From positions 107,756,001-107,820,000 of the forward strand of contig OZ024741.1 in assembly GCA_964016885.1 (NCBI GenBank): a DNA stretch of 64,000 nt, written 5' to 3'. Both the position numbers and the translations under genes were made by a program. Source of the stretch: Eledone cirrhosa. Lineage: Eukaryota. Under the pieces are notes generated by a model. It did not search any database and had not been told where the DNA came from. It saw only the letters and a program-made list of their open reading frames with translations. Numbering within the stretch: the first letter of the stretch is position 1; each line of letters begins with the position of its first letter. Positions 1-59,079 of this stretch are shown piece after piece.

Positions 1-1500
1 AGGTGGATGGCACGACTTAAAATTCAGATATTGATGGGTGTCTGTGTGTTTATAATATATATCCGTGGTAATGGTGGTGTCGTTTTTGATTATCATTATA
101 TCTAGGAATGGTAATTTGGTCCTACTCATCTCTTTTGTGAATTGGAGAGATGGGTGTAGGTTATTCAGGAGGATATTGAACTCATCCAGAGTATCTAGAG
201 ATTCTGTCCAGATGATGAAACAGTCGTCAAGGTATCTCTTCCAAGATTTTTCAATGTACTTTCTAAAGTCAGTACTATATTTTTCCTCTATTTCTTGGTA
301 GAGTTGTTGTTCTAAGTATCCCATTACAGAGTTCGCGTAAACGGGAGCAAACTTCGTTCCCATCGCTGTGCCTCTAATTTGGATGTAATTCTTTCCATTG
401 AAGAAGAAAGTGTTGTTTTCCAGAATAAGTTTAACTGCGTCTAATATAAATGGCGCTGTGAATCTAATGGGAATCACTTCTCTATGTTTTTCCACCCAGT
501 ATTTAACCGCCTTTATTCCTAAATCATGTGTAATGTTGGTGTAAAGGCTTACCACATCAAAACTGAGTAGAAGTGAATTCGTTTCCGTGGTTTTGGGAAG
601 ATGGGACAGGAAGTCGATATCATCCCGGATGAAACTGGGTATGTGAATACATAGTGGTTTCAAAATAATGTCAACAAAATTGCTTAGACGGTGAGTGGGG
701 CATGTTGGACCAGCTATAATAGGTCTAAGTTTTAAGTCTTTTGGGTGTAATAATTTAATGTACTCACTGTTTTGTTCTCTTACTGCCAGTTGTATTTCTT
801 TTGACTTGTGAACTTTCGGTAGGCCATACAGGTTGCTGGGTTTCGGCTCAAAATTGGTGATGTAGTCTCTTTCCTTATCAGTAAATGAGTTGTGGTATTT
901 TGAAGCCAGGTTGTTGATCTTCTTCATGATGTTGTGGTCTATATTTGACGGTATTTCATGATAGAATGTTGTGTCTTTCAGTTGTTCCTCAACCAAATCC
1001 TTGTAGTATTCAGTATCCATTATAACAACTGCACCCCCTTTATCTGCTTGTTTAATTATTATTGTTTTGTCATTTTGTATACGTTTAAGTGCAGACATTT
1101 CTGATTTGTTAATGTTTGGCCTAACATTAGTATTATGTCTAAGAGGAAATTTAGACAGGATGTCAATGTATTGGTCGAGATAGATATTTCTTCCTTTTGG
1201 CGGAGTGAAATTTGATTTATTCTTTACTAGTGATTCATCACTCTCATTATTTTTATCAGCGAAGAATTCTACAAGACGTAATTTTCGACAGAATTCTTGG
1301 GTATCCTCCTTCAGTTCTTGGTGGTTGACTGTTGGAGTCGGTGTGAATTTCAGTCCTTTTGACAGAATTTGCATTTCATCATTGTCAAGATCTCTTTTAG
1401 ATAAATTAATTATTTTAGGATCTACGTGTACAGCTGTTTTGGGTATGTTTCCTCCTGGAGTTTTTCTTTTTCCGGTTTTTGTTGTCCTGACGTTAAAAAA
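1..1500 (-). CDS. Penelope-like (Neptune-type) reverse transcriptase ORF2; runs off the left edge; -1 frame relative to the upstream ORF1
   Basis: Manual translation from 1500 is stop-free to base 1: IINLS..EMQILSKGLKFTPTP, KQADKGGAVVIMD, LPKVHK, RPIIAG, FDVVSLYTNI, GTAMGTKFAP, RYLDD, LPFLD. Absent from the ORF track because it has no stop inside the window. Confidence 0.93.
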
Positions 1501-2771
1501 TGAATTTTTCTCTGTTCAAGATTTATATTCCTGTTGGTGTTCGCTTGATGAACTTTTGGTCGTGATATTATATTTGGTTTCGTTATGTATTTTGTCCTAT
1601 TTTTGGTATTCTGTATATTATTTTTCTTCCTGCTAGCATTATTTTTAACAATCTGGGAAAATGACCTAGGTTTGCTTTCAGGTTTAGATCGTTTTTTCGT
1701 CCAGTTTCTTGTGGGCAATCTCTGTTGAGATCTTGAGAGTGATCTGGTTATTCTACGTTTTGTTTCCACATTCCTTGTTGGTAGTCTCTGTTGAGATCTT
1801 GAGAATGATCTCCTGGTTTTACTACTTCTCATGGTCTGGTCAAAGGAATACCTATCGTGTTTGTGCTTTTTGTTCATGTTGTGTGCGATAGGGTGTTTTT
1901 GTAGAAAAAGCGAAGAGTTATTACCGTAGTTCTTCTTTGATTCAAGGTAAGGTGAGTGTTTGTGTTGGCACGTGTTCTGGCGTATGTTGTGTTGATGAGA
2001 TTGTCCACTTTTAATGCTTTTTCTCAGGGTTCCAGAGTCTTTACCGTAATTTGCAGCATATTCATCGAGAAATAATTGTTTCTGCTGCCATACCTTTCTT
2101 GATTTGTTTTCTTCTTTTGAGATATCTCCGATCCATAGTTCTCGTAGTTTTTCAGCTATAATACCAGTCGTTAGCTTTGAAATTTCAACTTCAATTTGGT
2201 CATCAATAGCTTCATATTTGGCTTTGTAGCGGGATTGTTTACATTCAGAAATGGAGATGTCGGTCCTGAATTTTGTCAATGTAAGTTCCCATCGGAGTTT
2301 TGTTTCTTCTTCTGGTTCTCCTGCAATTTCTGTAATTAGGTATTTACGAGGGAGTATGGGTGCCGTTAGAGAGAGCCATTTCGAATGTGTTTCGACATAT
2401 TTTTCGCATCTGTATGCTTTCCAGAAATTTTGTTTTCTTATGTTAAGGAATTTTTTCCATGTCTTCCACATTTCTTTTCTTATTCGATGTGTTTTGTTTT
2501 CTAAATTTCTTTCGTTTATTTCTGACATCCAAGGGGGTTGTGGTAGGCTTTCTCTTGTATCTTTGATAACTGTTGGTATAATTTCAGCTAAATTCTTAAT
2601 TTCAGAGTTTATATGTTCAGTTATAAGTTTTCCGTCTGTAGATTGTTTTTCTATTTCCTTTAAAATAGAGGATTGTGTGTCCATCATCGTGATAAGTGTT
2701 GATAATTTCGATGATATCTCCTTTAGAATTCTTTCTGATTCTGTTGGTTTCATTTGTTGCTTTCCAGACAT
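1422..2771 (-). CDS. PLE ORF1, 449 aa: helical/coiled-coil-like N-terminus and a basic R/K/S-rich C-terminus with a duplicated RSQQRLPTRN block
   Basis: Intact ATG-to-stop ORF between the pLTR (2855-3086) and the RT frame, which it overlaps. Confidence 0.75.
   Translation of the reverse strand: MSGKQQMKPTESERILKEISSKLSTLITMMDTQSSILKEIEKQSTDGKLITEHINSEIKNLAEIIPTVIKDTRESLPQPPWMSEINERNLENKTHRIRKEMWKTWKKFLNIRKQNFWKAYRCEKYVETHSKWLSLTAPILPRKYLITEIAGEPEEETKLRWELTLTKFRTDISISECKQSRYKAKYEAIDDQIEVEISKLTTGIIAEKLRELWIGDISKEENKSRKVWQQKQLFLDEYAANYGKDSGTLRKSIKSGQSHQHNIRQNTCQHKHSPYLESKKNYGNNSSLFLQKHPIAHNMNKKHKHDRYSFDQTMRSSKTRRSFSRSQQRLPTRNVETKRRITRSLSRSQQRLPTRNWTKKRSKPESKPRSFSQIVKNNASRKKNNIQNTKNRTKYITKPNIISRPKVHQANTNRNINLEQRKIHFLTSGQQKPEKEKLQEETYPKQLYT
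1494..1500 (-). promoter_or_regulatory. Candidate -1 ribosomal frameshift slippery site U_UUU_UUA
   Basis: caT TTT TTA in ORF1 phase; the -1 frame has TGA at 1518-1516 and is then open through the RT. Confidence 0.65.
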
Positions 2772-2975
2772 GTTGGCATATACACAATAGGAATATATAT
2801 ATAGATATAGATAGGTAAATATACACGGGTGTGTATGATTGTGTATAGAAGATTATATTAATAAGAGGAATTCCAACTTTGTCTGATTTACTCGTTTTAT
2901 TTACAATCCTTTAAAATATATATAATGGTATTATAATGAAATAGTATGATAGAATATTAAATTCTAAGTGTTAAT

Positions 2976-3014
2976 TGAACAAGTACTTTCATGCTTTCGC
3001 AATCTTCAGGTTCA
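2976..3014 (-). ncRNA. Minimal type-I hammerhead ribozyme in the pLTR
   Basis: tgaac CTGAAGA ttgc-gaaa-gcat GAAA gtac TT gttca. Confidence 0.85.
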
Positions 3015-3107
3015 TGATATGTGGTGACAGTCGAGTTTGCAATTTTCAACTGTAATGAGATGGGTAAATTTCCTACCTTTTATACATAATTACCATTCCT
3101 AGATATA

Positions 3108-4016
3108 ATGATAATCAAAAACGACACCACCATTACCACGGATATATATTATAAACACACAGACACCCATCAATATCTGAATTTTAAGTCGTGCCATCCA
3201 CCTCATACAAAACGCAACATCCCATACTGCCTAGCCAGAAGAATTTGTACCATTGTAGAAGATACGAATACCAGGTACAAACGCCTAACAGAACTAAGAG
3301 AATTTTTGCTCAAACAAAAATACCCATCTCTACTTATAGAAAATGGCATACAGCGGGCTATAAAAATACCTATACAACAACTTAGAACAACCCAAAGAAG
3401 AAGAAACCAAGAACTGGTCATACCATTTATAATGACACACAACCCATGTCACCAGAATATCTTCAACACTGCCAAAGCAAACCTACCGATCATTGCTCAA
3501 AGTAATGAATTAAAAGGCTTAATCACAGATCGATCTTTGACTCTTAGTAAAAGACAGCCAAAAAATTTGAAGCAATTGCTAACAAAAGCAAAGTTTGACC
3601 TTAACAACAAAGACCAATCATTCACTGTATCTAAATGCAATGATAATCGATGCGGCACATGTCAATCCATACACGCCGGTCAATATATGAAAACAAAAAC
3701 TGGAAAAATATTCACAAATGCAAATATGAACTGCAAAAGCAGAAATCTAATTTACTGCATTAAATGCCCGAATTGTGAAGAACTATATGTCGGTCAAACT
3801 GGAAATGCACTATCGGAACGTGCACGGGTACACCGTCAACAAATCAGAGACCCAAATGTCCGTCAGATACCCCTAAGCGGCCACCTGGCAACATGTGGTC
3901 AGGGAATATTTATAATATTCCCATTCTACAAATTACACAGCCCAAGTGAAATCAAGAGAAAAATCAAAGAAAAGAATTTTATTGATAAATTCAAACCCAA
4001 GCTAAATGAACAATAA
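3108..4016 (+). CDS. 5'-truncated PLE RT thumb, Cys linker and GIY-YIG endonuclease
   Basis: YYKHTDTHQYL..SCHPPHTKRNIPYCLARR; CNDNRCGTC; CKSRNLIYCIKCPNC..YVGQTG..R..H; PKLN. Confidence 0.92.
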   Translation: MIIKNDTTITTDIYYKHTDTHQYLNFKSCHPPHTKRNIPYCLARRICTIVEDTNTRYKRLTELREFLLKQKYPSLLIENGIQRAIKIPIQQLRTTQRRRNQELVIPFIMTHNPCHQNIFNTAKANLPIIAQSNELKGLITDRSLTLSKRQPKNLKQLLTKAKFDLNNKDQSFTVSKCNDNRCGTCQSIHAGQYMKTKTGKIFTNANMNCKSRNLIYCIKCPNCEELYVGQTGNALSERARVHRQQIRDPNVRQIPLSGHLATCGQGIFIIFPFYKLHSPSEIKRKIKEKNFIDKFKPKLNEQ

Positions 4017-4391
4017 TAACGCCTAGGGGTATTACTTCTACTACCACTATGACCACGACCACTAACAACAACAACAACAACAATAATAATAATAATAAAA
4101 GTGATGTTGATGGTGATGATTAATAGAAAATGCTATTTTCATCATTTCAAAAAAGCAAAACAATTGATACGTTGGATATGACTATTGGTCGTTAGCATGC
4201 TCAACCAGCCGTGACGCTTAAACCAATCAGCTGTAGTAATTCAGTGAAACTACACACTGATTGGTCGAAATACAGTTTACAGGGCTTTGCATTCTGGAGC
4301 CACTTTTCTCTGTATAAAATGTATAAAAGGTAGGAAATTTACCCATCTCATTACAGTTGAAAATTGCAAACTCGACTGTCACCACATATCA

Positions 4392-4430
4392 TGAACCTGA
4401 AGATTGCGAAAGCATGAAAGTACTTGTTCA
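4392..4430 (+). ncRNA. Minimal type-I hammerhead ribozyme in the pLTR
   Basis: Same motif as 2976-3014; palindromic stem III (GTAC). Confidence 0.85.
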
Positions 4431-4550
4431 ATTAACACTTAGAATTTAATATTCTATCATACTATTTCATTATAATACCATTATATATATTTTAAAGGAT
4501 TGTAAATAAAACGAGTAAATCAGACAAAGTTGGAATTCCTCTTATTAATA

Positions 4551-4785
<235 letters not shown>

Positions 4786-4844
4786 GTAGATAAATCTACC
4801 AAAAATTTACGGTAGTGTCCAATCCGTATGAAGAACTCATGGGT

Positions 4845-4915
4845 GATGTGTTGGTGTAATGGTAGCACAGTGGTCGCGATAACCACAGATGTGGGTTCGA
4901 CTCCCATGTACGTCA
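4845..4915 (+). tRNA. tRNA-like cloverleaf with a non-canonical anticodon loop (pseudo-tRNA or Pol III head)
   Basis: GATGTGT/GTACGTC acceptor, GTGT/GCAC D-arm, GTGGT/ACCAC anticodon stem, GTGGG-TTCGACT-CCCAT T-arm; T-run about 10 nt downstream; loop CGCGATA lacks U33 and a purine at 37. Confidence 0.55.
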
Positions 4916-5499
4916 ATACTCATCTTTTTCCATTTATCTGAGGGTTCTAAACCCCGTTATCAAGCTAAAATTCCTTTAGTTAAAAATACGGTGAAAGCTA
5001 TATATTTTCTAATATATAATATATAAAATATATATATATAATATATAATATATATATATATAATATATAATATAAATATATATATATATATATATACATA
5101 CATACATACATTTATATTTAAGTCTGTAAGGATGTTGATATGATCTATGTCTTCTTTTTTTTGGTAAGGAGAAAATTTTTGTCGCCAGATTTTATTACCT
5201 AGGGAGTTTAAATACCACACTTCTGGCTGAAAGCTGACCAGGTTCTCAACCTCATCAAACACTAATGCCGACCTGTGTGTGTGTATATGTGTGTGTGTGT
5301 ATGTTCACCACCATTGCTTCTTCTTGTCATTTCTGTTGAAGTAGTCCTTACTTTCATTCTCTTTGATTTCTTTTGATTTTCTTTTATCTCCCTAGGGAAT
5401 TCGTTGACAAGCTTCTTTTATTTATTTTCTTCGTTTTCTTCATTCAAATCACTGACTGTCTAAGAGACGTACAAATATGACTTGTCAAACTTACCAAAC

Positions 5500-8676: not shown

Positions 8677-8808
8677 GTTACGTCCCTTTACGATCTGCGT
8701 TCAAATCCCGCCGAGGTTGACTTTGCTTTTCATCCTTACAGGGTTGATAAAATAAAGTACCAGTAATGCACTGGTTAATTGCCTTGTGCCTAAAGTAGAA
8801 ACAATTAT
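8677..8808 (+). mobile_element. tRNA-derived SINE, 5'-truncated
   Basis: B box gttcaaatccc plus body ccgaggttgactttgc..ttcatcctta..gataaaataaagtaccag. Confidence 0.85.
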
Positions 8809-10249
8809 TTTGGCTTGTTTATTGTTTTCTTTTTCGGCGAGAAATATCTTAATTAGGATAATTTAAAATTATCATGAAATATAGGTTAAACTATAAACTG
8901 TTGTTTTGGCTTATTTTACAATTCTTTTCACTCTTTTATTTGTACCACGCATTATATTGCTTTAATAAAACAATTTTAACTACGTTTTATATAATTTGTA
9001 TGTGTATGACTATGTTTCAGAGTGTACGTTACTTGCTTTGTGTGTCTACGTGTGTATGTGCGAATGTGTTTGTGTTTGAGAGAGTATGTCCCTGTGTATG
9101 TGTTTCCCTGTGTATGTTTGTATGCATATATGTGTATGTATACTGGAAGGCTACATGTATATATATATATGGATGTCCAACATCTGAGAAGCAGATGTTG
9201 GAGAATTCAATTTACAATGTCTTCTATATTAATTAAATCTGTTTCCTTTCCTTTTTTTGCCTTTTATCTTTCATAATCTTTCATCTTTGTTTTCTTTGTG
9301 GTTATTCAGACAACAGATTATGTCATTGTTGAAAACACGAACAGATTCACTTTCATTTCACATTGTTGTCAGTGAATATTTTATACGTTAATATCAAACA
9401 TGGTGTTTGTTTCAGCTTCTTTTTACCATTCTTTATCTCTTGATATTCTTTTCGTTTCATTTCGCTAAAAAATGCAAATATTTATATATTGGTGTTTCCA
9501 TCACATATTTGCTTCTTGGTATATGGAGTCATGAAATTATCCTTAATTATAGTTAAACTTTTAGTGGTGAGAACAATGATCATCTGAATTCCTGATTCTG
9601 ATTTTAAAAGAAGATAACTCCGTAAATTTAATTGGGCAAAATGAAGGAAATGTGGAATATACTCCTTCATATCAACGTGTATTTTAGGAATTCCATTCAT
9701 TAGGGGTAGTCCATCTTGATCAGTAGATTCCCTTGAGTAGTAGACTTAATAGTAGTAGCTTTAGCTGAAACAGTACTGGTGCAAGAACTCCAGGTATGCT
9801 TACGTCCCGTATAATTCAGAGACATTCAAAAATACCCATAGGTACTGCTCAACTATCACCTTAATCCCACCAATCCCCTGTCACAGATAGGTACCCATAT
9901 TTATCAATCTGAAAAGGATAACAGACCAAGGTGACTTCAATGGCATTTGAATTCAAACTAGAGAGAGGTGAAATTCATTAACACGAGATATTCCTTCCGG
10001 CGTTCTAACACCTTACATTTACCCTACACCTAATCCTACTATGCAGTTAAGTTTGATTTAACATATTTATGACAGTGCAATTAAATCCTTAGCTATTAAT
10101 TGACAAATAATATTTTTTATTATTTTAACAACTATGGCAGAATGCCTGGTTATATTTCAGCTTTATTATGATCTCAACAACGAATAATATACTGCACAAT
10201 ACTTTTGAAAGTATTAAATGTATCAAATAAGTAAATATATCAAAGTGTC

Positions 10250-10929: not shown

Positions 10930-12110
10930 TTTGATACCCATTATGACACATTTTTGAGGCAACGAGTTACGGCTGGATATCTCTTACAGCACATAGGAAA
11001 ATAATTGAAGGGTACATTAGATATACACATACATACTTCTAAAATACACGATGATCATGGTTGGAAGAACTGTTATTGCTCGAATGTTTTGAGACTTGAT
11101 AACTCACAGACGTCATCCAAAACAAAAGAAGTTAATGTTATCATATTTAATAGAGAAAGCATTAACTATGTAAACGACGACTAGTCCTTTTGCTTGTTAA
11201 ATATATTTAACTTCAACGGGTTCTTCAGTTAGTTGTTAAATTCACTGGATATCTTGAGTATTTCATTCTTGAATATAGTTTTTGTTTGCTCATATCTAAA
11301 ATTATATATGACTTCATTCTCCACATGTTTCAATAATCTGCATTCAGTAATTCCTAAAATTATTTGAAAATATTTCATATACTTCTCAATTCAATAAACG
11401 TTACCATTCAGTACATTATAATTATTGAAGCAGATAAGTCTGCGTGGTTAAGTAGTTCGTTTCCCAATCATGGTTACGATCATTCTGCGTGGAATCTTGG
11501 TAATCTATAATATAATAAAGGGAGGAGTGCAGAAGTGTGACCGCTTTATATGTTTTTATCCCAACAGTAAAATAAGTTAGATTACTTTGAAAAAATAATG
11601 AATAAATATTATATAATTCATCTACTAAATTTTGTAACATGATTAAACATAAATGATTTAATATATTGCTTATGTCAAGATTCACTTCTTTTATATATAT
11701 ATATATACATATCCTCCGCCAACTTGACCACCAACTGACCCCCACCCTCCTCCGCCTTAACTACACCTGCCACCCCCTCCTCGCCCAAGCCATCCTCTCC
11801 TTCATCCAAAACCTCAACCACAACCTCTTCTCCTTCCTCAGCTCCACCAAAGCCCGCAAGCTACACTCACACCTCCCAACCACCCCCATCCACCACCACC
11901 CGCCCATCCCCATACGCCCCCCACTCTCCACCCCTCCATCGACCCCCCTTACCCCCCCCCCCAAAAAAAAACCCACCACTTGTTGTCACCATACCCCCTG
12001 ACCTCCCCCTCTCTGCACCTGAGCGCTCACTCCTTAGTAGAGGCCTTCGCTTCATACCCCACACTCAGCACAGAGACGAATTCCGCACCCGAACGGAAGT
12101 CGAGCGATTC

Positions 12111-13430
12111 GTGCGACGCACGGAGCTACAGGCACATTTCGGCCGAACGCCACCGGCTCCGGACGCCCCAGACCCGTTTCTCGCCCTGGGCCGACGACCA
12201 TCTTCTTGGACGCCGGCCCCAGGGCAATTTAGCACCCTGGACGCGTTCGTCGATGCCAGCCGTAGCGCAGTAAATCGTTTCGACTGCCGCCACCGTTCCA
12301 AACGGTATATCTCACGGGGCGAACTCCTCGCTCTCCGCTCCCTCCGTAGCCGAGATGACATCGTCATCAAACCGGCGGACAAGGGAGGCGCCGTGGTGGT
12401 GTGGCGCGCGGACCTCTACACGGCCGAAGCCCTCAGGCAGCTCTGTAACCCCCTCTTCTACCGCCCTCTACACTCCGATCCCACACCCCTCTACCAACAA
12501 CAAGTTTCCTCCACCATACAAAACCTTGTCGCCTCCTCCCTCCTCCCCTCCACCGCTTCCCACCTCATCGTCCGCACCCCCCGCACCCCCACCATCTACT
12601 TCCTCCCCAAACTCCACAAACCCGACAACCCCGGCCGCCCCATCGTCTCCGCTTGCAACTGCCCCACCGAACTCATCTCCGCCTTTCTCGACTCCATCCT
12701 CGCCCTCCTTGTCACCACCCTCCCCTCCCACATCTCCGACACCAACCACGCCCTGCGCCTTTTCGACTTCTTCACCTACCCACCCGGCCCACAGCCCTTC
12801 CTCTTCACCCTAGACATCAAGTCCCTCTATACCGTCATCCCCCACGCCGACGGCCTACGCGCCCTCAAACACTACCTCGACCTTCGCCCCTCCCCCATTC
12901 CCTCCACCCCCACCCTCCTTCACCTCGCCGAGCTGGTCCTCACCCTCAATTGTTTGTCCTTCTCGGGTGAGTTTTACCAACAGGTCACGGGGGTAGCCAT
13001 GGGTACAAGAATGGGCCCGAACTATGCCAACCTTTTTGTTGGCCATGTTGAGGCCCAAATCTTTGCCCAGTACACCGGCCCCACGCCCGAACTGTATGTC
13101 GTTACATTGACGACTGTATCGGAGCCACGACCCTCACCCGAGAACAGCTCGACTCCTTTCTCTCCTTCTTCTGCTCCTTCCACCACTCCCTCCACTTCAC
13201 CACCTCTATCTCCACCACCCACGTCCACTTCTTAGACATCTCCGTCACCTTCGACCCCTCCCACCACTCCCTCGTCACCTCCGCCTTCTTCAAACCCACC
13301 GACTCCCACTCTTACCTCGACTTCACCTCTTCCCACCCCACCCACACCAAACACTCCATTCCCTACTCCCAACTCCTCAGGATCCGCCGCCTCTGTAGCC
13401 GAGATGCTGACTTCGAGTACCAGGCTTCTT
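12111..13430 (+). pseudogene. PLE reverse transcriptase with frameshifts (around 11980 and 13100), truncated near 13430
   Basis: ORF 12111-13235 shifts frame just before YIDD. Confidence 0.85.
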
Positions 13431-14116
13431 CCGACCATCTCTTCATGGAATACTCGTATGTGGAACTTGACCACCGTGGAATCTACTAACATCATAGGAG
13501 TTTACCAACATTTCAACCACATCCTCTTACGGAATCACCCTATATAACTCACCCACACACACACCCAAGAAAATGTTTTTTCTCCCACACGCCACCTACA
13601 CCCACAACACGCTTAAACCCCACACACACGTGCTTTCCACCACATATTTACACCCTCAGCCTCCGGATTCCTATCCCCCCACCCCTCTATCAACACACGC
13701 ACAGACACTCCGACCTACACCCCACCCCACACACACCTCTTCCTGAACATGCAACCCCGTTCTTCCCCCAACCCTTGCTTTCACATACACACACACACAC
13801 ACACACGTACACCTACACACACACGTCACCTTCAGCCCTCTCCGCTCGGACACCCCGTCTCCCTCTACCCACTCCACCCGCAACCACCCCTACACACCCC
13901 ACACCCTTCCACCACCTGTTTTACCCCTTTTTATTTTCAGTTTATTTTGATCATGCTTTTATATTTATTTTTATTTCATTTCATTTTATTTTGAACATGC
14001 TTTATTTTTATTTTTATTTTTAATTTCATTCGCACCGTTTCCTCCCACCCCCTTTTCACTATATGTCTCTCCACCACTCCCCTACACACCCTTTGAACTC
14101 TCTTCCCAACACTTCT

Positions 14117-14150
14117 CACCTGAGGAAGGGCTTATGCCCGAAACGTCGTT
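14117..14150 (+). ncRNA. Minimal hammerhead-like motif of the C-rich PLE pLTR
   Basis: CTGAGGA a gggc-ttat-gccc GAAA cg TC; stem I weak. Confidence 0.65.
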
Positions 14151-14236
14151 CCCCACCACCACCCCACTCTCCAGAGCGTGAAATTAATAAACATTCGTTG
14201 TACTGCCTGTCTGTTTTGTTCCTGTTCAAATTTTCC

Positions 14237-15448: not shown

Positions 15449-15924
15449 TACCTATCTACCGGCCTTTCTGGAGAATTGTAAAAGCACATGTTATATGCTT
15501 TTTCTATGAAAATTAGTAGTGGGCAGACTAATTTGCATAGAGTGTGAGTACGCACCGGTTCAGCGGAGACGATAAAAACAAATAACGAAACGAAATTAAA
15601 TTTCGTTTCGTTTGTAACTCACTTTTGTATGACTGACGCTTAAACAATTAAGTCAAAAATGTACATCTACATATCAATATTTGAAGATGATTCTTTAGCT
15701 GTTGTTGAAGTGGTTGAAAAAGAACATCTTCTGCAGAGTTCTATACAAGAATATTTCAATAATATGAATTGTCTGGGTGCGTAGTTGGATACAAAGGAGA
15801 CACTATAACGTATATAAAGTGTTGGAATATATGAGAAGTATTCAGTTACTCCAGCGGATGAAATATTGGAATTTAGAATAAATGATTTGGATGTTTAACA
15901 CCTATCAGGTAAACATTATTTCTA

Positions 15925-16114
15925 TGGCGGTGGATTAGCAGTATCGGTAGAGGGCCGGACGCCATGCTTTCCAGCATAGTTACGTCCCTTTACGATCTGA
16001 GTTCAAATCCCGCCGAGGTTGACTTTGCCTTTCATCCTTACGGGGTCGATAAAATAAAGTACCAGTAATGCACTGGGTAATTGCTGGCCTTGTGCCTAAA
16101 GTAGAAACAATTAT
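15925..16114 (+). mobile_element. tRNA-derived SINE, full length
   Basis: A box tagcagtatcgg, B box gagttcaaatccc, conserved body, tail agaaacaattatt. Confidence 0.9.
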
Positions 16115-16376
16115 TTCTATGCTTTGATGAGATTTAGTATGAGGTACAGTTTCATATGTGTTTGTGGATCTGAAATTTGTACGAATGTATATACACATAT
16201 GTGAATTATATATGTATTTTTAGTGTGAAAATTTACGTATGTATGCGTTTTCTCTTATACATTTGCATATGAGCCAGCAGGTAGGTGTACGTATTTATGC
16301 ATGTGAATGTATGATTGTTTCTATATGCATCTGTTTTAGAGCTCCAGTGTATGTGTGTCTATATGCATCTGTGTAC

Positions 16377-26279: not shown

Positions 26280-27035
26280 CACACACAGAAATGTATATAT
26301 ATTTCTGTGTGTATATATATATATATATTACACACACAGAAATGTATATATATTTCTGTGTGTATATATATATATTTCTGTGTGTGTATATATATAGATA
26401 TTACACACACAGAAATGTATATATATTTCTTAGAACAAAATTATTATTAATGTTTTGCTGTTCATAACAATTGGAATTGAAAAATTACTTTTGAAATTAT
26501 TAGTTATTTTACTAATGCTTAGATATGTAAAAATGAAGCAATGTTTCTAATAATTGTTTCTACTTTTGGCACAAGGCTAGCAATTACACAGTACATTACT
26601 GGTACTTTATTTTATCGACCCCGTAAGGATGAAAGGCAAAGTTAACCTCGGCGGGATTTGAACTCAGACCGTAAAGGGACGTAACTCCATGCTATGAAGC
26701 ATGGTGTCCGACTCTCTACAGATTCTGCCAATCCACCGCCCTAATGTCTGTACGTAATGAGGGAGTGAGAGGGGAGAGAAAGAAAGGCAGAGGTGAAGTG
26801 ACGAAGTGACTCTCTCCTCCTCCTCCTCCTCCTCCTCCATCTCCCCATTCGTCACAGCGATAGAGGGGAGGAATGTTAGTGTGTTACAAAGAGAAAGAGT
26901 GATAGTGAGAGAAACAGACAGACTAAAAAAGAGGGATAGCTGGAGAGAGAGAGAGAGATAGCAACCACGCGCGCACGTGTTTCCACTGTCGGACAGACAG
27001 ACAGAGAAATTGCTGGTTATATATTATAAGGAGAT
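24438..27035 (+). mobile_element. Cluster of Helitron/Helentron-like non-autonomous elements (HINE/DINE-1-like) with internal ~140-290-bp repeats, interrupted by a SINE
   Basis: Starts actagc..acccggcgttgcacggg (24439) and actagcagaaaacc (25660); (GACA)n near the ends; recurring cacctaatgcgggccctagg and ctgaaacataagta blocks. Confidence 0.5.
26551..26740 (-). mobile_element. tRNA-derived SINE
   Basis: Reverse complement of the 15925-16114 consensus. Confidence 0.9.
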
Positions 27036-31542: not shown

Positions 31543-31733
31543 TGGTATTGTGGATTGGCAGTATCGGTAGAGGGTCGGACGCCATGCTTTCCAGCATAGT
31601 TACGTCCCTTTACGATCTGAGTTCAAATCCCGCCGAGGTTGACTTTGCCTTTCATCCTTACGTGGTCGATAAAATAAAGTACCAGTAATGCACTGGGTAA
31701 TTGCTGGCCTTGTGCCTAAAGTAGAAACAATTA
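31543..31733 (+). mobile_element. tRNA-derived SINE
   Basis: A box tggcagtatcgg, B box gagttcaaatccc. Confidence 0.9.
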
Positions 31734-31996
31734 TCATCATTATCACCACCATGATCATTATTGCTGTTGTTGTTGTAGTTATTGTGCTGTTATAGTTGCT
31801 GCTGCAGTCTTGTTGTTCTCATTATATATGTGTATGCGATTGCTTCGGATATAAATTTTGTATAACAGAAAAAAAGAAAAGAAATATACAAATATTAAAA
31901 TAAAATATTAAGAATAGAACCCGAATGAAAAACAGATGAATGTGTATTAGAAAGAGAAGACAGCAACAAGAGCAGCAGCAATTGCAGTAGTAGTAA

Positions 31997-32182
31997 TATT
32001 TGTTTCTACTTTAGGCACAAGGCCAGCAATTACCCAGTTCATTACTGGTACTTTATTTTATCGACCCCGTAAGGATGAAAGGCAAAGTCAACCTCGGCGG
32101 GATTTGAACTCAGATCGTAAAGGGACGTAACTATGCCGGAAAGCATGGCGTCCGACCCTCTACCGATACTGCCAATCTATCG
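31997..32182 (-). mobile_element. tRNA-derived SINE, inverted relative to 31543-31733
   Basis: Reverse complement of the consensus. Confidence 0.9.
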
Positions 32183-32672
32183 CAGTAGTAGTAATATTAC
32201 CAGCATTGTAGAGGAAGTGTGGGGCTATAAAACCCAAATGAAAGAGGAACATTCCTGTCAGTTAACAACAGAGTTGTATCAAACCAGCCTAAATAAACAT
32301 CATAAATATTTTAATGTAGACTAAGAACTATATGTGTGGTACTGAGGTGGAAATTAGGAAAATATGTTAAAAGCTAAAGTAACCTATGCAATATGAGAAA
32401 TGGCATTGTATTTACGAGGTTGTCCCTCACAAATTGTGGTGCTGAATTCGATCGCACTCTGTTGTGTGTCACCATAGACTATTGTTTACTGTTAGGGCTT
32501 CCAATCAGTACAGTCAATGACAGTTTAACTTATTCGAAACTGCAGAATCCTATCCCCATTTATGTTGTATCTACTATTCAAAATTCAGTCTTCTCTGATG
32601 AGCCTGTGAAGGGACAGGTTAAACTTCAGAGTAAATAGACTGACCACATAATCATAACAAATAAATAAATAA

Positions 32673-38819: not shown

Positions 38820-38872
38820 TGCTACTGTACGTCTGTATACATATATGTATGTACATATACATACATACTTAC

Positions 38873-41443
<2,571 letters not shown>

Positions 41444-41753
41444 TATATATATATAAGCAGAAGGGATATTCAATTTGTTGGTAATTCAACACATATCAAT
41501 GTTTATAACTGATTCAGAGCACTCGACAGCTTTCTGGAGTATAATATTCAATGATATTAAATAAATGGAAACTATATTTATAAAACCATATTTAGTCTAT
41601 TATATATATTTCAAGAGTACCAACATTTTGCTACGCTATCATCAGATAAAATACGAAGTCTGTTTTATAAATATTTGAGATAACCAAGGAATCTATGCTT
41701 TAACGGTTCAAGTTTTCCTTGGATATATATATGTATATATTTTTTTATATATA

Positions 41754-46609: not shown

Positions 46610-48674
<2,065 letters not shown>

Positions 48675-48748
48675 GATATTTACTCCGTCACTCCTATGTG
48701 GAAAAAGTACGTTGAGTGCTTGAATTGAATTGCATCAATATTTACCCT

Positions 48749-48779
<31 letters not shown>

Positions 48780-48786
<7 letters not shown>

Positions 48787-49584
48787 ATATTTGGGAGGGT
48801 CATGTTGCCAATAAGAAACACACGCACCAGTTGCTTTCACTTCAATTTATTATAATAAATTTATCAATTTAGGAATTTATAAATTTCCGGTTGGTTGGTT
48901 GGTTCCACAACCAGATGATTGTTTATATATTGTCAAAGTTCTTTCGTCACACATTCTATGACCTCTTCAGTGACTGGGGATTCTTTTCTTTGTTGTTGTG
49001 CCTCTCCTTTGTTCTGTCCTACGCCATCTTGTTTTTTGTGTGTTGTGTGCTTAGTTTGCGCATGTGTTACATCCGGGTGTCTGTGTGTGTTTATATTTGT
49101 TTATTTATTTGTTTATTTACATGTTACTGGTTGGCTGTTTGTTCTATGTGCGTGTGTGTTTTCATTTTGTCCTTAATTGTAAGTTGTGATGTTGCTGTTC
49201 CATTCGGGTTTTCTATTTAATTTTGGTTGGAGTTCATTTATGTTTATTGCCTCTGTGATTTGTCTAAACATTGCATCTTTTCGCACACAGACACCCGAAT
49301 GTATACCCTCCCAAAGTATAACAATATCGGTTTCAACATACGTTTTCAGATAAAGGATCTTGCTAAATAAATTCAGAAACGAAATATATATATATATATT
49401 GTTATACTTTGGGAGGGTCATGTTGCCAATAAGAAACACACGCACCATATGCTTTCACTTCAATTTGAAGTGAATGCAACTGGTGCGTGTGTTTCTTATT
49501 GGCAACATGACCCTCCCAAAGTATAACAATATCGGTTTCAACAGACGATTTCAGCTAAAGAATCTTGCTAAACAAATTCAGAAA

Positions 49585-49588
<4 letters not shown>
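48780..49588. mobile_element. Rearranged pLTR fragments of the 39-41 kb PLE family; hammerhead at 48932-48974 (minus); hairpin at 49396-49532
   Basis: Matches 38975-39470; gtca CTGAAGA ggtcata..tgtgac GAAA gaac TT tgac. Confidence 0.85.
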
Positions 49589-49646
<58 letters not shown>

Positions 49647-49652
<6 letters not shown>

Positions 49653-51509
49653 TTAGTACATCTACCAACATATGCGTACAGTTGTACACTAATGCCAGCA
49701 AATATATAAGTCATGTCATAGTACCTAGGTGGTTCTATGCAGGGCGATGCAGAACAATTATATGAAAGACGTAAAATAAGAAAATTTTAAAATTAAAAAT
49801 TAACTTACTAAAATTTTCACTCCAACTAATTAGTTTCTGTAATGGGATAAATATAGTTACGCAATATAACTATCGAGAATTCATTACGTCATCAGGGAGT
49901 CTATTCTCAGCTAAGTTCCCAGGCAATGCGCGGACACTAGGAACTCATATAAAAATAATAATTCAGTGGATGGAATAGCTAGCGAGGACTAAATTCCATA
50001 GCACTGGCAGATTCTAAAGAATCAATCACATGACACTGAGATTAGTCAGTAGGAGTGGGGTGGTATTATGACAAGAGCCTACTACTACTACTATGAATTA
50101 GCAGTGGATTTGGCAAGTTTGCTCAACAAATAAATAATTTGGAGATAAATATAGAGAATTAGTACATCTACCAACATATGCGTACAGATGTACACTAATG
50201 CTAGCAAATATATAAGTTATGTCATAGTACCTAGGGGATGCAGAACAATTATATGAAAGACGTAAAATAAGAACATTTTAAAAATTAAAAATTAACTTGC
50301 TTACTAAAATTTTCACTCCAACTAATTAGTTTCTGTAATGGGATAAATATAGTTACGCAGTGTAACTGTCGAGAATTCATTACGTCAACAGGGAGTCTAT
50401 TCTGAGCTAAGTTCCTAGGCAATGCGCGGACACTAGGAACTCATATAAAATAATAATTCAGTGCATAGAACCACCTAGGTACTATGACATAACTTATATA
50501 TTTGCTAGCATTAGTGTACATCTGTACGCATATGTTGGTAGATGTACTAATTCTCTATATTTATCTCCAAATTATTTATTTGTTGAGCAAAGTTGCCAAA
50601 TCCACTGCTAATTCATAGCAGTAGTAGTAGGCTCTTGTCATAATACCACCCCACTCCTACTGACTAACCTCAGTGTCACGTGATTGATTCTTTAGAATCT
50701 GCAACTTGACCAGAGGCAGTGAACTTTTTCAGTGCTATGGAATTTAGTCCTCGCTAGCTATTCCATCCACTGAATTATTATTTTTATATGAGTTCCTAGT
50801 GTCCGCGCATTGCCTGGGAACTTAGTTGAGAATAGACTCCCTGATGACGTAATGAATTCTCGATAGTTACATTGCGTAACTATATTTATCCCATTGCAGA
50901 AACTAATTAGTTTGAGTGAAAATTTTAGTAAGTAAGTTAATTTTTAATTTTTAAAATTTTCTTATTTTACGTCTTTCATATAATTGTTCTGCATCCCCCT
51001 GCATAGAACCACCTAGGTACTATGACATAACTCATATATTTGCTAGCATTAGTGTACATCTATACGCATATGTTGGTAGATGTACTAATTCTCTATATTT
51101 ATCTCCAAATTATTTATTTGTTGAGCAAACTTGCCAAATCCACTGCTAATTCATAGTAGTAGTAGTAGGCATTTGTCATAATACCACCCCACTCCTACTG
51201 ACTAACCTCAGTGTCACGTGATTGATTCTTTAGAATCTGCCACTTGACCAGAGGCAGTGAACTTTTTCAGTGCTATGGAACTTAGTCATCGCTAGCTATT
51301 CCATCCACTGAATTATTATTTTTATATGAGTTCCTAGTGTCCGCGCATTGTCTGGGAACTTAGCTGAGAATAGACTCCCTGATGACGTAATGAATTCTCG
51401 ATAGTTACATTGCGTAACTATATTTATCCCATTACAGAAACTAATTAGTTGGAGTGAAAATTTTAGTAAGTTAATTTTTAATTTTTAAAATGTTCTTATT
51501 TTACGTCTT
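49647..51509. repeat. Array of a ~538-bp hammerhead unit: about 1.6 copies minus, then about 1.95 copies plus (inversion at ~50462)
   Basis: Plus units start at 50463 and 51001; hammerhead cores at 49819-49900(-), 50315-50396(-, mutated), 50836-50917(+) and 51374-51455(+). Confidence 0.9.
51374..51455 (+). ncRNA. Type-I hammerhead with extended, interrupted stem II
   Basis: actcc CTGATGA cgtaatg..atagttac-attgc-gtaactat..cattaca GAAA ctaattag TT ggagt. Confidence 0.8.
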
Positions 51510-52408
51510 GAACAAAACGTATCTCTAGGATCTCGTCGAATAGAAAAATTTTCGACGAAAAGGCCCAATACTATAATGAAGCATTAGCTAGGGCAGGATA
51601 TGCTGATAAGATTGTGTACATAGATAATGATAGACAAACTAAACAAAGTAACAACTTTTTTAATTACGGCAACAACATTAATAACTATAATAGAAAGCAT
51701 TACAATAATTCCAAAGGCCAAAAAAGAAATAGAACTAGGAACATAATTTGGTTTGCCCCCCCTTTCTCACTAAACATTAAAACCCACATCGCTAAATTAT
51801 TTTTCAAAGCTCTTGATAATCGCTACCCTAGAACACATAGGTATCACTCAATTTTCAATCGGCATACAATTAAATTAACCTACTCATCCACCAAAAATTT
51901 AGCACAAAATATTAATAGAATAAATAATAGGAACTTAAAACCTAGTGATAATAGCATAAATAATATACAAGTTAACAAATGTAACTGTAGAGATAGATCT
52001 AAATGTCCGTTAAATAACAACTGCTTAGTTAAAAATATAGTATACAATTGTAATGTTAATACTGACTCTAATTCTTTTAACTACGTCGGTTCCACATCGA
52101 CGGAATTTAAACTTCGCTATAATAACCACAAGAATTCTTTCACAGATCCAAGTAAAAAATCTTCAACGGCACTATCAGGCGTACTCTGGCAACTTAAGCT
52201 AGATAACGTTAGATATTCGACGGCTTGGAATATAGTCTCAAGGGGGATTCCTTTTAATTCATCCTCTGAGACATGTGACCTCTGCGCAGAGGAGATATTC
52301 TTTATACTAAAATCTAAAAATTCCCTTAATCTACGGACAAATTTATTCAGTTGTTGCAAACATAGATTAAACTCAACGTTTAAATATAAATTTAAATTTA
52401 AAATGTAG
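51510..52408 (+). CDS. 5'-truncated PLE thumb, Cys-rich linker and GIY-YIG endonuclease (different PLE lineage)
   Basis: KRISRISS..YNEAL..GY, IIWFAPPFS, IFNRHTIKLTYS, CNC..CPL..C..IVY..YVGST..FKLRYNNH, CDLC..E, CCKH. Confidence 0.88.
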
Positions 52409-55802: not shown

Positions 55803-55876
<74 letters not shown>

Positions 55877-55960
55877 CTTTGAATAAGTTTGAAATGTTTT
55901 GGCCAGTATTGGCCCAGGCCATGTCTAACTTAATAGCACCACCTGGCGAAGTCTTTCAAT

Positions 55961-57472
55961 TCAGGATTTGGGCACCATGGCCCATTCGAGAAGAGAATTA
56001 CTGTTTGCCGGTTCATATCCGGGTGTGGGTGGTTTGTCCGGGATTACTTGGAGGAATTTGTCCAAAGACTTCTTGAATTTTGTGTGGTCAGTTTCTGTTT
56101 TGACGTGTCCTGGTGTGATGTTGAAGAGAGCAGGGCCAATTGAGGTGAAATAATTGTGCCGTATTGTTGTTATGAGTTGCGATTTAGATTTTTGTTTGGG
56201 ACGGATAGCACGGGGCCCAAGCCTTGGGTGTATTTTGAAGGTGATGCCAACATCATTTGGGCAGTGATGATGAAACATTTTCCACATCATGCAGATAATA
56301 TAACGCTCACGGCGACGTTGGAGTGAGTAAAGTTTCAGCTTTTCTAGTCGACCCCAGTAGTCAAGGTCTGACATGCCATCTATCTTTTTCGTGATTGCCC
56401 TTTGAGGAGCTTCAAGTTTCATGATACTTTGTTTCGTGTGGGGAGACCACAGTGGACAACAGTATTCAAGGTGTGGTCGGGCAAAAGTAGAGAAGAGAAG
56501 GATAATGGTGTGGGAATCTCTCGGCTGGAAGGTTCTGAGGATCCAGGAACACATTCTGCGGGCCATGTCAACTTTGCTGCTTATATGCGTGGCCCAGCTT
56601 ATGTTGCTGTCCACGGTTACTCCCAAGTCTCTGATGTTGTTAGATGCCACGAGAGTTTCACCGGAGGGAAGGGAGTACGGGAGTTTCAGAGCATCCTCTT
56701 TTCCAAAGTGGATCAGTTCGAATTTGTCTTCGTTCAGTAACATGTTGTTCTTTTCCGCCCATTGGGTAACAGCCAGTAGGTCTGACTGAAGGCTTATCCG
56801 GTCATCCACGCCATTGATGACCTTTTGGAGCTTGGAATCATCAGCGAAAATTTTAATGTTGCTGTGTTTGATGAGATCAGTGATGTCATTAATATAGATG
56901 ATGAAGAGAAGTGGGCCCAACACAGTGCCTTGTGGGACCCCACTACTGACTTTGGCTGGGTTGGATTTGACTCCTTCAACTACAACATGTTGGGTTCTGT
57001 TTGACAGGAAGCTCTTGATCCACTGCAGCAGCTTCCCAGTGCAACCAATATTGGACAGTTTTCTCAGTAGAATGTTGTGATCAACCCTGTCAAAGGCCTT
57101 GCTGAAATCAAGGTAGATAACATCAGTGTTGGAACCCACTCCCAAGGCTCTCAAAATGTCATCAAAGTGATGCAGTAGCTGCGTCAGGCAATCCCTTCCA
57201 TTACGGAATCCATGCTGGTTGGAGTTCAGCATATTGTTACTCTCAAGGAAGTGGGTCATTCGCGATCTCACCACTCTCTCGAATACCTTAATGATATGAG
57301 AGGTGAGTGAGATTGGACGGTAATTCACGGCAAGGGATTTGTTTCCTTTTTTGAAAACTGGGACAACAGACTGGGATAGAAGGTTTTCTGGCACATATCC
57401 AGCATCCAGTGAGTTCCGCCACAGATTGGCTAGAGGAGATGCAAGTTGGTGTTGACACGCCTCAAGACACAA
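55961..57472 (-). CDS. LINE ORF2 reverse transcriptase part, separated from the endonuclease part by a 1-nt deletion near 57462
   Basis: NYRPISLTS, QHGFR, YLDFSKAFD, SGVPQGTVLGPLLF, FADD, RDLGV, RPHLEYC, LYSLQRRRER. Confidence 0.93.
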   Translation of the reverse strand: MCLEACQHQLASPLANLWRNSLDAGYVPENLLSQSVVPVFKKGNKSLAVNYRPISLTSHIIKVFERVVRSRMTHFLESNNMLNSNQHGFRNGRDCLTQLLHHFDDILRALGVGSNTDVIYLDFSKAFDRVDHNILLRKLSNIGCTGKLLQWIKSFLSNRTQHVVVEGVKSNPAKVSSGVPQGTVLGPLLFIIYINDITDLIKHSNIKIFADDSKLQKVINGVDDRISLQSDLLAVTQWAEKNNMLLNEDKFELIHFGKEDALKLPYSLPSGETLVASNNIRDLGVTVDSNISWATHISSKVDMARRMCSWILRTFQPRDSHTIILLFSTFARPHLEYCCPLWSPHTKQSIMKLEAPQRAITKKIDGMSDLDYWGRLEKLKLYSLQRRRERYIICMMWKMFHHHCPNDVGITFKIHPRLGPRAIRPKQKSKSQLITTIRHNYFTSIGPALFNITPGHVKTETDHTKFKKSLDKFLQVIPDKPPTPGYEPANSNSLLEWAMVPKS

Positions 57473-59079
57473 GCAGGGAACCTATCGGGACCTACTGCTG
57501 AATTATGCTTGATTTCCTTTATTGCCGCTAAGACATCAGGGGCGCCAAACGTTATGTCCGATAAGGTGTAATGGGGAGTAACATCGCCGATACAGCCCAG
57601 ATCGGCCATATCAGGATTGCTGAAAACAGAGCAGTATTGTTTCTGCAGTATCTCACCCATGGTTTTAGCATTGTCTTGAAGAGTGCCATTTTCATCAATT
57701 AGAGGGCCAACAGTAGAGCCAGTGATTTTGTGTTTTTTTGCAAATGAAAAGAACACTTTGGGATTGAGTTTGATCTTCTCAATGGCCCAGGCCTCTTCAG
57801 CTCTTCTCTGATTGTTGATGATAGACATTATGTTGTTTTGGAGGTTATGTTTTTTAATCTCTAGTGATGAAATGGCAGTCAAGTTTATGTGTTGCTGCTG
57901 ACAGTATTTCAGCTTGTTGATTTTTTTGTTCGCTCTCTTAATTTTCCTGATGAGCGTTTTTCTATTTCTAGGGATTCTGCTCTTAGATTTGTTTATAGTT
58001 CTTAATGGGGTGTGTTTTGCACACGTGTTTGTAAGATTGTCCACAAATGTCTGACAGGACTTTTTGATGTTAGTGGGTGTATGAGTGTGCGTGAAGGACC
58101 AGTCGACATGTGCAAGATCATGACTGATCGCTTCCCAGTTTGCATTGTGGAAATCCATAGCGTCAAACGGATGGACAGGAGAGATGACATTGGGTTTGTA
58201 TATTGGACGGTGGAATCTCAGATCACAGAGAACCATGTCATGATCAGAGAGTAGAGTTTTCTCCACTGCAATATTGTGGATATTGTCAGTGTGATTGCTG
58301 AAAATTAAGTCTAGGACGTTTTTGTGGCACCTCGTTGGTTCGAGCACCAGTTGGGACAGGAAGAAATCATCCATGAAGTCAAGAAGCGATTCCACTGCTT
58401 CCCTGTCAGAGGTTGAGGCAGAAGAACCTGGTGGCAGGCTGTTTGTGGACCAGTCAACTCCGGGGAGGTTGAAGTCCCCCATCATTAAGATGTTGTCAGG
58501 GTGACACTCTTGGATGAAACACTTTATGCTGTTGAGGCATTCCTTGAAGCATGGTAGAGGCGTTTGGGGTGGCCTATAGAGCCCAACTACTATTAGGTTG
58601 TTGGTTTGACTGAATACAGTGACTGCTTCGCAGTATCCATTAGTAAATATGTTCATAGCCTCTGTTGAGAAAGAATTATGGACATAAATGGCAGTCCCAC
58701 CCTTTCTTCTGCCAGCGCGATCAGCACGGATGGCTTTGAAATTTTTCACTTTCACCTCGGCTTCCAAGTGGAGGTTACTGAGATGGGTTTCAGTGAGGAC
58801 GAAGAAAGGGATGTGGTTTGGATGGACATCAACCCAGTCCTCCAGGAATTTGATCTTCCATTTTTGAGTATTGGTGGAAGGGCTGAAGCCTTGGGCGTTA
58901 AGCAAAAATGTTGAGGCGAGAGTGGATGGTTTTAATTGTTTTGGTGTGTTGTTAATTTGTTTGTTTGTTAATGGCAGCAATGGGAGTTTGTGCAGTGGGG
59001 TGATAGTGGAGGGTGGTGCTGGGTGATAGCTCGAATGTTTTTTTCCAGTTCTTTTGCCAGATTCATTATGGCTAAAAAA
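57430..59079 (-). CDS. LINE ORF2 APE endonuclease part; frame open from the slippery site, with no AUG before the catalytic motifs
   Basis: LLNAQG, LTETHL, RADR..GG, YRPP, GDFNLP, LDLIF, SDH, GPD. Confidence 0.9.
   Translation of the reverse strand, partial: FFSHNESGKRTGKKHSSYHPAPPSTITPLHKLPLLPLTNKQINNTPKQLKPSTLASTFLLNAQGFSPSTNTQKWKIKFLEDWVDVHPNHIPFFVLTETHLSNLHLEAEVKVKNFKAIRADRAGRRKGGTAIYVHNSFSTEAMNIFTNGYCEAVTVFSQTNNLIVVGLYRPPQTPLPCFKECLNSIKCFIQECHPDNILMMGDFNLPGVDWSTNSLPPGSSASTSDREAVESLLDFMDDFFLSQLVLEPTRCHKNVLDLIFSNHTDNIHNIAVEKTLLSDHDMVLCDLRFHRPIYKPNVISPVHPFDAMDFHNANWEAISHDLAHVDWSFTHTHTPTNIKKSCQTFVDNLTNTCAKHTPLRTINKSKSRIPRNRKTLIRKIKRANKKINKLKYCQQQHINLTAISSLEIKKHNLQNNIMSIINNQRRAEEAWAIEKIKLNPKVFFSFAKKHKITGSTVGPLIDENGTLQDNAKTMGEILQKQYCSVFSNPDMADLGCIGDVTPHYTLSDITFGAPDVLAAIKEIKHNSAVGPDRFPACVLRRVNTNLHLL

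Follow-up and report, generated by a model that had tools for sequence, protein, structure and literature searches.

The locus described here raises the question of how two retroelements of different classes gain access to a second open reading frame (ORF) that lies in the -1 frame relative to the first. Both elements, a Penelope-like element (PLE) and a long interspersed nuclear element (LINE), are found in a 64,000-nt stretch of Eledone cirrhosa DNA (assembly GCA_964016885.1, contig OZ024741.1, positions 107,756,001 to 107,820,000 of the forward strand), which we refer to as the window and which consists of AT-rich animal DNA rich in (TA)n and repeats. In both, ORF2 overlaps ORF1 and the slippery heptamer U_UUU_UUA is located inside the overlap (Table 1), in the context CAT TTT TTA ACG (H-F-L-T) in the PLE and TCT TTT TTA GCC (S-F-L-A) in the LINE. 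A first-pass annotation of the window had reported these two in-phase heptamers with ORF2 at -1, and the sequence, together with a phase anchored on the ORF1 ATGs, confirms the observation. The same annotation had left room for chance in AT-rich sequence. The word UUUUUUA occurs once per element on the sense strand, and the chance of an in-phase U_UUU_UUA in such an overlap is ∼0.0014-0.0028 per element, as compared to ∼0.11-0.19 per overlap for any canonical in-phase heptamer (Markov orders 0-3); a second in-phase canonical heptamer is present in each overlap, C_CCA_AAA at 1443 in the PLE and A_AAA_AAC at 59043 in the LINE. The explanation that we consider very probable, with greater confidence in the LINE case than in the PLE case, is that family-encoded programmed -1 frameshifting yields ORF1-ORF2 fusions in both elements.

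The evidence that carries this explanation comes from relatives of the LINE. The window ORF2 was aligned with seven homologues, this alignment was used to scan metagenomes, and the best 80 of at least 472 confirmed stretches were analysed. An upstream ORF of at least 100 codons overlaps ORF2 at 44 of the 80 loci, in the -1 relation at 37 and in the +1 relation at 7. Twenty loci cluster with the window LINE, with a node support of just 0.26 on short fragments, and the 16 members in a longer-alignment tree form a clade with a support of 1.0. Three of the 20 loci (L004, L024, and L025) are without the junction region, so 17 are testable, and U_UUU_UUA_G is in phase in 15 of them, counting L010 on a short contig. 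The two exceptions are in phase as well, with G_GAU_UUU in L001, given in a passage of PMC4737148 as the site of Pea enation mosaic virus, and U_UUU_UUG in L037. One further locus, L016, is without the site and is placed outside the clade. The 15 carriers represent 11 assembly prefixes of metagenome contigs, presumably from differing host species, and the protein identity of those in the tree, measured over the endonuclease region, is 27-80% with a median of 32%.

Within the same elements, none of 58 other Phe-Leu pairs is coded U_UUU_UUA and two of the 58 are coded UUU_UUA; the nucleotides themselves are therefore selected. This conservation can be seen directly in a DNA alignment of 13 site-centred junctions, where the sole invariant block is TTTTTTAG. 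The base after the heptamer is G in 16/16 LINEs and the residue that it helps encode differs (E, G, V, A). The -1 frame is likewise seen to be open. The last -1 stop lies 0-36 nt ahead of the site in the relatives, and from the site to the ORF1 stop the -1 frame is stop-free for 36-176 codons, 1215 codons in total. An upstream -1 stop rate of 9.8% (349/3566) predicts ∼119 stops in these codons and none is observed, a zero that is partly obtained by construction, as the search for heptamers was confined to the open stretch; the length of this stretch and the placement of the site at its 5' end do not come from the construction. The +1 frame of each junction contains 2-10 stops.

These data bear on a different reading of the junction, in which FL is a protein motif of ORF1 that opens a C-terminal helix, ORF2 is reached via re-initiation, non-AUG initiation, or internal initiation, and the two ORFs overlap by accident. 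FL stands ahead of the C-terminal helix in 12 of the 16 partly displayed ORF1 homologue matches, and ORF2 of mammalian L1 is thought likely to use unconventional initiation, according to a passage of PMC5009743. A motif would nevertheless leave the codons, the preceding U, and the following G free, contrary to the 0/58 background and the G in 16/16, and re-initiation has no need of 36-176 stop-free -1 codons from FL onward. Start codons fall on both sides. The interval from the site to the endonuclease is directly seen to be without an AUG in 10 of 15 LINEs, as it is in the window LINE; the other five do have a -1-frame AUG ahead of the endonuclease, which favors the protein motif and speaks against frameshifting. 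Gene models P0043, P0044, P0051, and P0053 begin ORF2 at a Met at or inside the first strand of the endonuclease. On balance, we regard a protein motif with an incidental overlap as a very unlikely account of the site and retain programmed frameshifting.

The relatives also reveal which shared features of the two window elements are not part of a design. The first-pass annotation had described a -1 frame opening 6-7 codons upstream of both sites and a basic ORF1 tail ahead of them. The frame actually opens five codons (PLE) and six codons (LINE) ahead of the heptamer, and because the relatives span 0-12 codons, with the -1 stop rate given above, the shared spacing is at chance level. The tail is indeed basic in both window copies, with K+R of 9 and 10 in 40 residues, but it is not conserved, with values of 2-10 in the relatives. 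Both were rejected as design features, since both vary.

The scan also gave a second and more distant set of LINEs: 22 loci with a -1 overlap are placed outside the main clade, and at 10 of these A_AAA_AAC is in phase within the overlap (L031, L036, L039, L042, L043, L047, L052, L056, L063, and L072). In L043, L047, and L052 the K-N pair falls within a conserved ORF1 domain, and protein constraint is a possible cause there. Scanning viral contigs five times yielded no relative that could be used; L081 matches over only 39 residues.

If the two reading frames had been split by a copy-specific one-base mutation or a sequencing error in the T run, the offset would not be expected in other copies; it is common, with the site, to the 15 LINE relatives. 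For the PLE, contigs of four sequencing runs were mapped to 1000-2900; the site is covered in X1, X5, and X6 but not in X9, and X1 possibly represents the source sample. No indel is recorded at 1494-1500 in the three covering runs at a 5% threshold. Record 10 of X5 extends across 1411-1625 and differs by 29 substitutions without any gap. Record 18 of X6 extends across 1400-1713 and differs by 44 substitutions plus 9 gap letters, and the latter match the recorded in-frame insertions of 6 and 3 nt. The -1 offset is preserved in diverged contigs from two of the three covering runs. T runs of at least five are far fewer than A runs of that length (2 to 20 and 3 to 19 in the two elements), and the ORF1 homologues described below are conserved in frame 0 beyond the site. 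Many PLE relatives do have a single ORF, the window LINE does have one such break elsewhere, and frameshift mutations in the connector are described as common in Naiad PLEs in a passage of PMC8557442, all of which would suit a mutation or an error. Taken together, this explanation is largely refuted and we leave it next to no chance, in agreement with the first-pass annotation, which had doubted two independent homopolymer errors.

Relatives were needed for this decision because the LINE copy, or its assembly, has ordinary damage near 57460. The LINE copy is thus not intact, being broken within ORF2. The earlier statement that these two elements are the only ones in the window with intact 5' ends stands as far as examined: an ORF1-like 5' part was not found in the remaining PLE fragments of the window.

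Conservation of the PLE junction was also examined at the protein level. A search with PLE ORF1 identified three homologues, P0077, P0078, and P0079. The stand-alone ORF1s P0077 (52%) and P0079 (36%) retain 'IHFLE', with a remaining length comparable to that of the window ORF1, and P0078 is a gene model that terminates ahead of the site. The homologues run on in frame 0 beyond the site with conserved sequence. The Mytilus gene model P0001, known as protein only, has 'PFFR' ahead of the start of the reverse transcriptase (RT), consistent with a -1 reading of the site. P0063 was discarded as a spurious low-complexity match. A scan of prokaryote assemblies gave 59 PLE loci (L082-L140) of eukaryote type, evidently a contamination of bacterial-titled assemblies with eukaryotic host DNA. 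Among these, the distant PLEs L098 and L126 (33-34% RT identity) have U_UUU_UUA_G in phase ∼21 nt past the last -1 stop, with a broken ORF1 in L126. The proposal that the arrangement is widespread is supported; the octamer is in phase in 15 of the 17 testable LINE relatives and in two distant PLEs.

Other loci from the prokaryote-assembly scan are of interest in their own right. In L091, G_GGU_UUU is in phase at 3713-3719, 12 nt past the last -1 stop, and PLE ORF1 has 363 codons. A PLE ORF1 is located upstream of, and overlaps, the RT in the -1 frame in L100 (2-538), L101, L102 (2-1093), and L106 (1-393). Weak matches to GDSL/SGNH esterases, below the cut-off, were obtained for L100 (E 2e-4) and L102 (E 4e-3). 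These matches bring to mind the esterase found in ORF1s of CR1/L2 LINEs, and they suggest an exchange of ORF1s between classes.

Given these relatives, the shared heptamer can be assigned to convergence, as the first-pass annotation had proposed. A BLASTP comparison of PLE ORF1 with LINE ORF1 revealed no kinship (best E 2.1), and common ancestry of the two was rejected on this basis; because the ORF1s are unrelated, the match between the classes represents convergence on one of a small number of efficient eukaryotic heptamers. The same annotation had suspected that the host favors the site; in such a reading, host translation, for example through scarce tRNA-Leu(UAA), would have selected it in unrelated elements. 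It is true that the window PLE and LINE have the heptamer in common and are both without a hairpin, and that slippage on the HIV-1 site is modulated by tRNA-Leu(UAA) abundance, as reported in a passage of PMC6547452. However, a LINE clade has the site by ancestry, with members from 11 other assemblies at the median identity given above, and the octamer is found in distant PLEs as well. UUA is also not avoided in the window ORF2s, in which the PLE uses it for 9 of 47 Leu codons and the LINE for 8 of 110. Selection of the site by the host fails because each lineage has the site in other assemblies, and we hold it to be quite unlikely; the host may still influence the efficiency of the slip, as distinct from the presence of the site. 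The signal looks like one inherited within each lineage and neither a host quirk nor a sequencing error. We propose that the LINE lineage is an invertebrate-type clade with a Cys/His-finger ORF1 and that the PLE lineage is a two-ORF subgroup of endonuclease-positive PLEs.

A purine directly follows the heptamer at 19/19 exact sites, so that the +1/-2 frame meets a stop there, either UAG or UAA; this count covers the window sites (1493 and 59072), the carriers among L002-L018, L098, and L126. A further reading is transcriptional slippage, in which the polymerase would give some RNAs an extra base on the T6 run. Polymerase slippage would require neither the fixed phase nor an A after the run, and a run of six bases is short for it. 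The conserved core is a homopolymer, as slippage would have it, and slippage is known as an alternative in insertion sequence (IS) elements (a passage of PMC5009743). We consider it to have hardly any probability, and programmed ribosomal frameshifting remains our explanation.

With regard to RNA structure, the weak downstream hairpins noted in the first-pass annotation are recovered when the 40 nt after each window site are folded (-2.0 and -4.4 kcal/mol), and they do no better than shuffles. An H-type pseudoknot was not found in the window copies by a simple heuristic; across 18 sites, this heuristic had at most 1 of 20 shuffles performing better at six, and the geometry is not common. Over the 60 nt downstream of 15 LINE sites, the mean z is -1.0, versus +0.1 to -0.3 at seven other offsets, and strong hairpins are predicted for L012, L014, and L018, at -17 to -21 kcal/mol with z of -2.4 to -3.3. 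A local stimulator exists in some LINE members and is missing in others. The suggestion that the mechanism needs little RNA structure therefore holds only in part, for the local fold of the two window copies.

Several points weigh against programmed frameshifting. Of 13 distinct PLE families with upstream sequence, only two have U_UUU_UUA (L098 and L126); the rest comprise three with another canonical heptamer (L091, L101, and L106), two that are fused (L086 and L094), and six with none. In addition, 35 or more PLE relatives have a fused N-terminal extension. One X6 contig (depth 4.8 of 54) misses a base at 1485. The inspection of substitutions covered 40 of 499 rows, so substitutions within the PLE heptamer of other copies are possible, and P0077 and P0079 are known as protein sequences alone. 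The window LINE may be a dead copy, given its second break. Folds of the 100-nt windows of the two window copies do not outperform shuffles (z +0.98 and +0.24), and a local stem-loop or pseudoknot 5-9 nt downstream was found in neither. Finally, the slip, its efficiency, the fusion protein, and the stimulation of hairpin-less copies are what we infer from sequence. Weighed against these points, the PLE case is good, yet weaker than the LINE case.

Our working model is as follows. The majority of ribosomes would stay in frame 0 through the site and complete ORF1 with a short added tail. A minority, with tRNA-Phe and tRNA-Leu(UAA) on the site, would slip one base back into the endonuclease/RT frame, and the rarity of the slip would set a high ratio of ORF1 product to enzyme. 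Retroviruses produce Gag-Pol by such frameshifting. Hairpin-less copies could be stimulated by intrinsic slipperiness, by slow decoding of UUA, or by a distant or protein stimulator. A precedent may be found in Escherichia coli dnaX, for which passages of PMC6771820 and PMC6547452 describe a one-tRNA 'hungry' route that is independent of downstream structure; by analogy, this route could let hairpin-less copies work.

The features of the two elements and of a dispersed repeat are collected in Table 1.

Table 1. Coordinates of the retroelement features and dispersed-repeat copies in the window
Feature	Position	Strand	Description
PLE slippery heptamer U_UUU_UUA	1494..1500	-	in phase with ORF1; next base A, giving UAA in the +1/-2 frame
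PLE ORF1	1422..2771	-	449 aa counted from ATG; terminates 22 codons past FL
PLE ORF2 (reverse transcriptase)	1..1515	-	-1 relative to ORF1; continues beyond the window edge
PLE ORF1/ORF2 overlap	1425..1515	-	91 nt
Pseudo-LTR (pLTR), PLE 5' end	2793..3087	-	93% identity to 4319-4615, inverted orientation
Inverted 5'-truncated copy of the window PLE	3088..4615	+	RT end, CX4CXXC linker finger, GIY-YIG endonuclease, pLTR
LINE slippery heptamer U_UUU_UUA	59073..59079	-	in phase with ORF1; next base G, giving UAG in the +1/-2 frame
LINE ORF1	58968..60098	-	376 aa counted from ATG
LINE ORF1/ORF2 overlap	58971..59097	-	127 nt
LINE ORF2 first part: APE endonuclease and linker	57433..59097	-	
Second one-base break, LINE ORF2	57433..57481	-	near 57460; ordinary, without canonical heptamer; relatives continuous there
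LINE ORF2 second part: reverse transcriptase	55961..57481	-	RVT_1 E 6e-32
Dispersed-repeat copies	8677-8810, 15912-16119, 26548-26743, 30073-30212, 31546-32198, 63604-63790		

The N-terminal half of PLE ORF1 is conserved and its tail is basic and of low complexity; a Pfam search gave no match, and the atlas matches were all under 0.9 and none was usable. PLE ORF2 matches RVT_1 with an E of 1.4e-06, slightly short of the curated cut-off, and contains no Met ahead of the conserved 'IINLS' that begins the RT region. Since the main copy exits the window, the PLE endonuclease was taken from the inverted partner copy, which is 100% identical over 116 nt to positions 1-116 and encodes a C-terminal GIY-YIG domain (E 1.2e-06) accompanied by a CCHH motif. 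The finger of the linker that joins RT to endonuclease, CNDNRCGTC within 3090-4013, fits CX2-5CxxC as defined in a passage of PMC8557442. A search for a hammerhead ribozyme near the PLE 3' end gave no Rfam match at the gathering score; CUGAAGA...GAAA-like words are present near 4398-4425, with a fold z of +0.43. The best named match to the PLE is part of an Octopus bimaculoides gene model with 75% identity (P0038), which by itself makes an octopus-like host probable.

LINE ORF1, as judged from its sequence, contains a Q/T-rich middle, two Cys/His finger-like repeats, a basic stretch, FL, and a predicted amphipathic helix, in that order. It has no match in Pfam and none that is usable in the atlas; its N-terminus (60098-59870, minus strand) resembles a Myb/SANT-type helix bundle when inspected by eye. 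The ORF1 of the relative L009 has a PHD finger instead, the only one above the cut-off among six clade ORF1s scanned besides that of the window. The domain families found in the window LINE ORF2 are APE and RT only, with no RNase H match, and (TA)n borders the element at both ends.

A third PLE, C-rich, is present at 11735-14190 (plus strand) with an RT 46% identical to P0029; its start is at a run of (TA)n, with no ATG, it is broken near 13090, and C10-A8 is located near 11951-11970. Nested inverted repeats at 38855-41454 and 46712-52405 consist of PLE fragments that are truncated, with a GIY-YIG domain at 40341-40964. The dispersed repeat, 130-200 nt long and present in at least seven copies that are 85-98% identical, is probably a short interspersed nuclear element (SINE). 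The sole tRNA-like sequence of the window (4844-4916, plus strand; ARAGORN Ser-CGA, Rfam 44 bits) is possibly a SINE head.

The proposed sites matter for annotation, as pipelines that tally intact elements would score copies of this kind as broken. Translation of LINE ORF2 is a long-standing open question that has been worked on mainly in mammalian L1, and a nucleotide-exact, clade-wide site offers a cheap and precise test system in invertebrate LINEs. The predicted ORF1-ORF2 fusion enzyme would alter the model of the LINE ribonucleoprotein, and the stimulator need of U_UUU_UUA could be gauged on the series of natural copies, some of which have a downstream hairpin while others have none. We see an even balance for and against the broader claim that -1 frameshifting is a widespread and mostly unrecognised route to ORF2 in animal non-LTR retroelements, encompassing the U_UUU_UUA_G LINE clade with its long dual-coding overlap, the A_AAA_AAC LINEs, and several endonuclease-positive PLEs. 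Under this broader claim, the elements would produce ORF1-ORF2 fusions of the Gag-Pol type, in part with no local RNA stimulator, and a large number of copies that are intact would at present be labelled as frameshifted pseudogenes or assigned a spurious internal start.

How these elements compare with known systems can now be considered. Passages of PMC6771820 and PMC6547452 give U_UUU_UUA as the frameshift site of HIV-1 and Semliki Forest virus (SFV), and heptamer and phase are the same in HIV-1 gag-pol, SFV 6K/TF, and the window elements. The likeness to gag-pol extends to the order, with a structural ORF first and an enzyme ORF in the -1 frame. Unlike HIV-1 and SFV, the window elements are non-LTR retroelements, their copies are without a stimulator-grade stem-loop, and the LINE overlap extends 102-522 nt past the site.

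Among LINEs, the ORF2 of Dictyostelium TRE5-A and TRE3-A, which are APE-type, is said to require a -1 frameshift in a passage of PMC5911963 that leaves the heptamer unstated; compared by description, these elements differ in being amoebal and tRNA-gene-targeted and in having a C-terminal zinc finger. The window LINE resembles the CR1/L2 group (Jockey superfamily) in its ORF1 and APE-RT ORF2, a provisional placement. A PHD finger is frequent in CR1/L2 ORF1s according to a passage of PMC4120745; the PHD finger of L009 resembles these, whereas the Cys/His finger repeats of the window-clade ORF1 differ. A term search of that survey for 'CCCH', 'frameshift', and 'overlap' returned none of them. In the pertinent passages of a 2016 frameshifting review (PMC5009743), only HeT-A, TART, and mammalian LINEs are named, and a passage of PMC5405496 suggests +1 frameshifting or re-initiation for Paramecium LINEs. 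Term searches of PMC3846280, PMC6431247, and PMC11203168 gave nothing relevant.

Among PLEs, the window element is like the endonuclease-positive Neptune and Nematis in its RT, CX2-5CxxC linker finger, GIY-YIG with CCHH, pLTR, and inverted truncated partner. It is unlike them in having two ORFs in a -1 overlap, kept in other copies, rather than a single ORF, the form in which canonical endonuclease-positive PLEs are described in a passage of PMC8557442. In some PLEs, ORF1 can be set apart by a frameshift that comes with a pseudoknot, according to the Fig. 1 legend of Craig et al. 2021 (PMC8557442). Like the window PLE, these have an upstream ORF1 joined to the RT by a frameshift; the window PLE differs in that GIY-YIG is present and a pseudoknot was not found by the heuristic. 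The mark in that legend reportedly refers to Athena/Terminon, said to go back to Arkhipova et al. 2017. Athena and Coprina, which are endonuclease-negative PLEs, are without the GIY-YIG domain that the window PLE has. We found no report of a clade-wide conserved heptamer in the open-access literature, and Repbase reports, subscription journals, or supplements may hold one. Relative to all of these systems, the new part is a textbook slippery site in a probable retrovirus-like role that is conserved across a deep clade of non-LTR LINEs.

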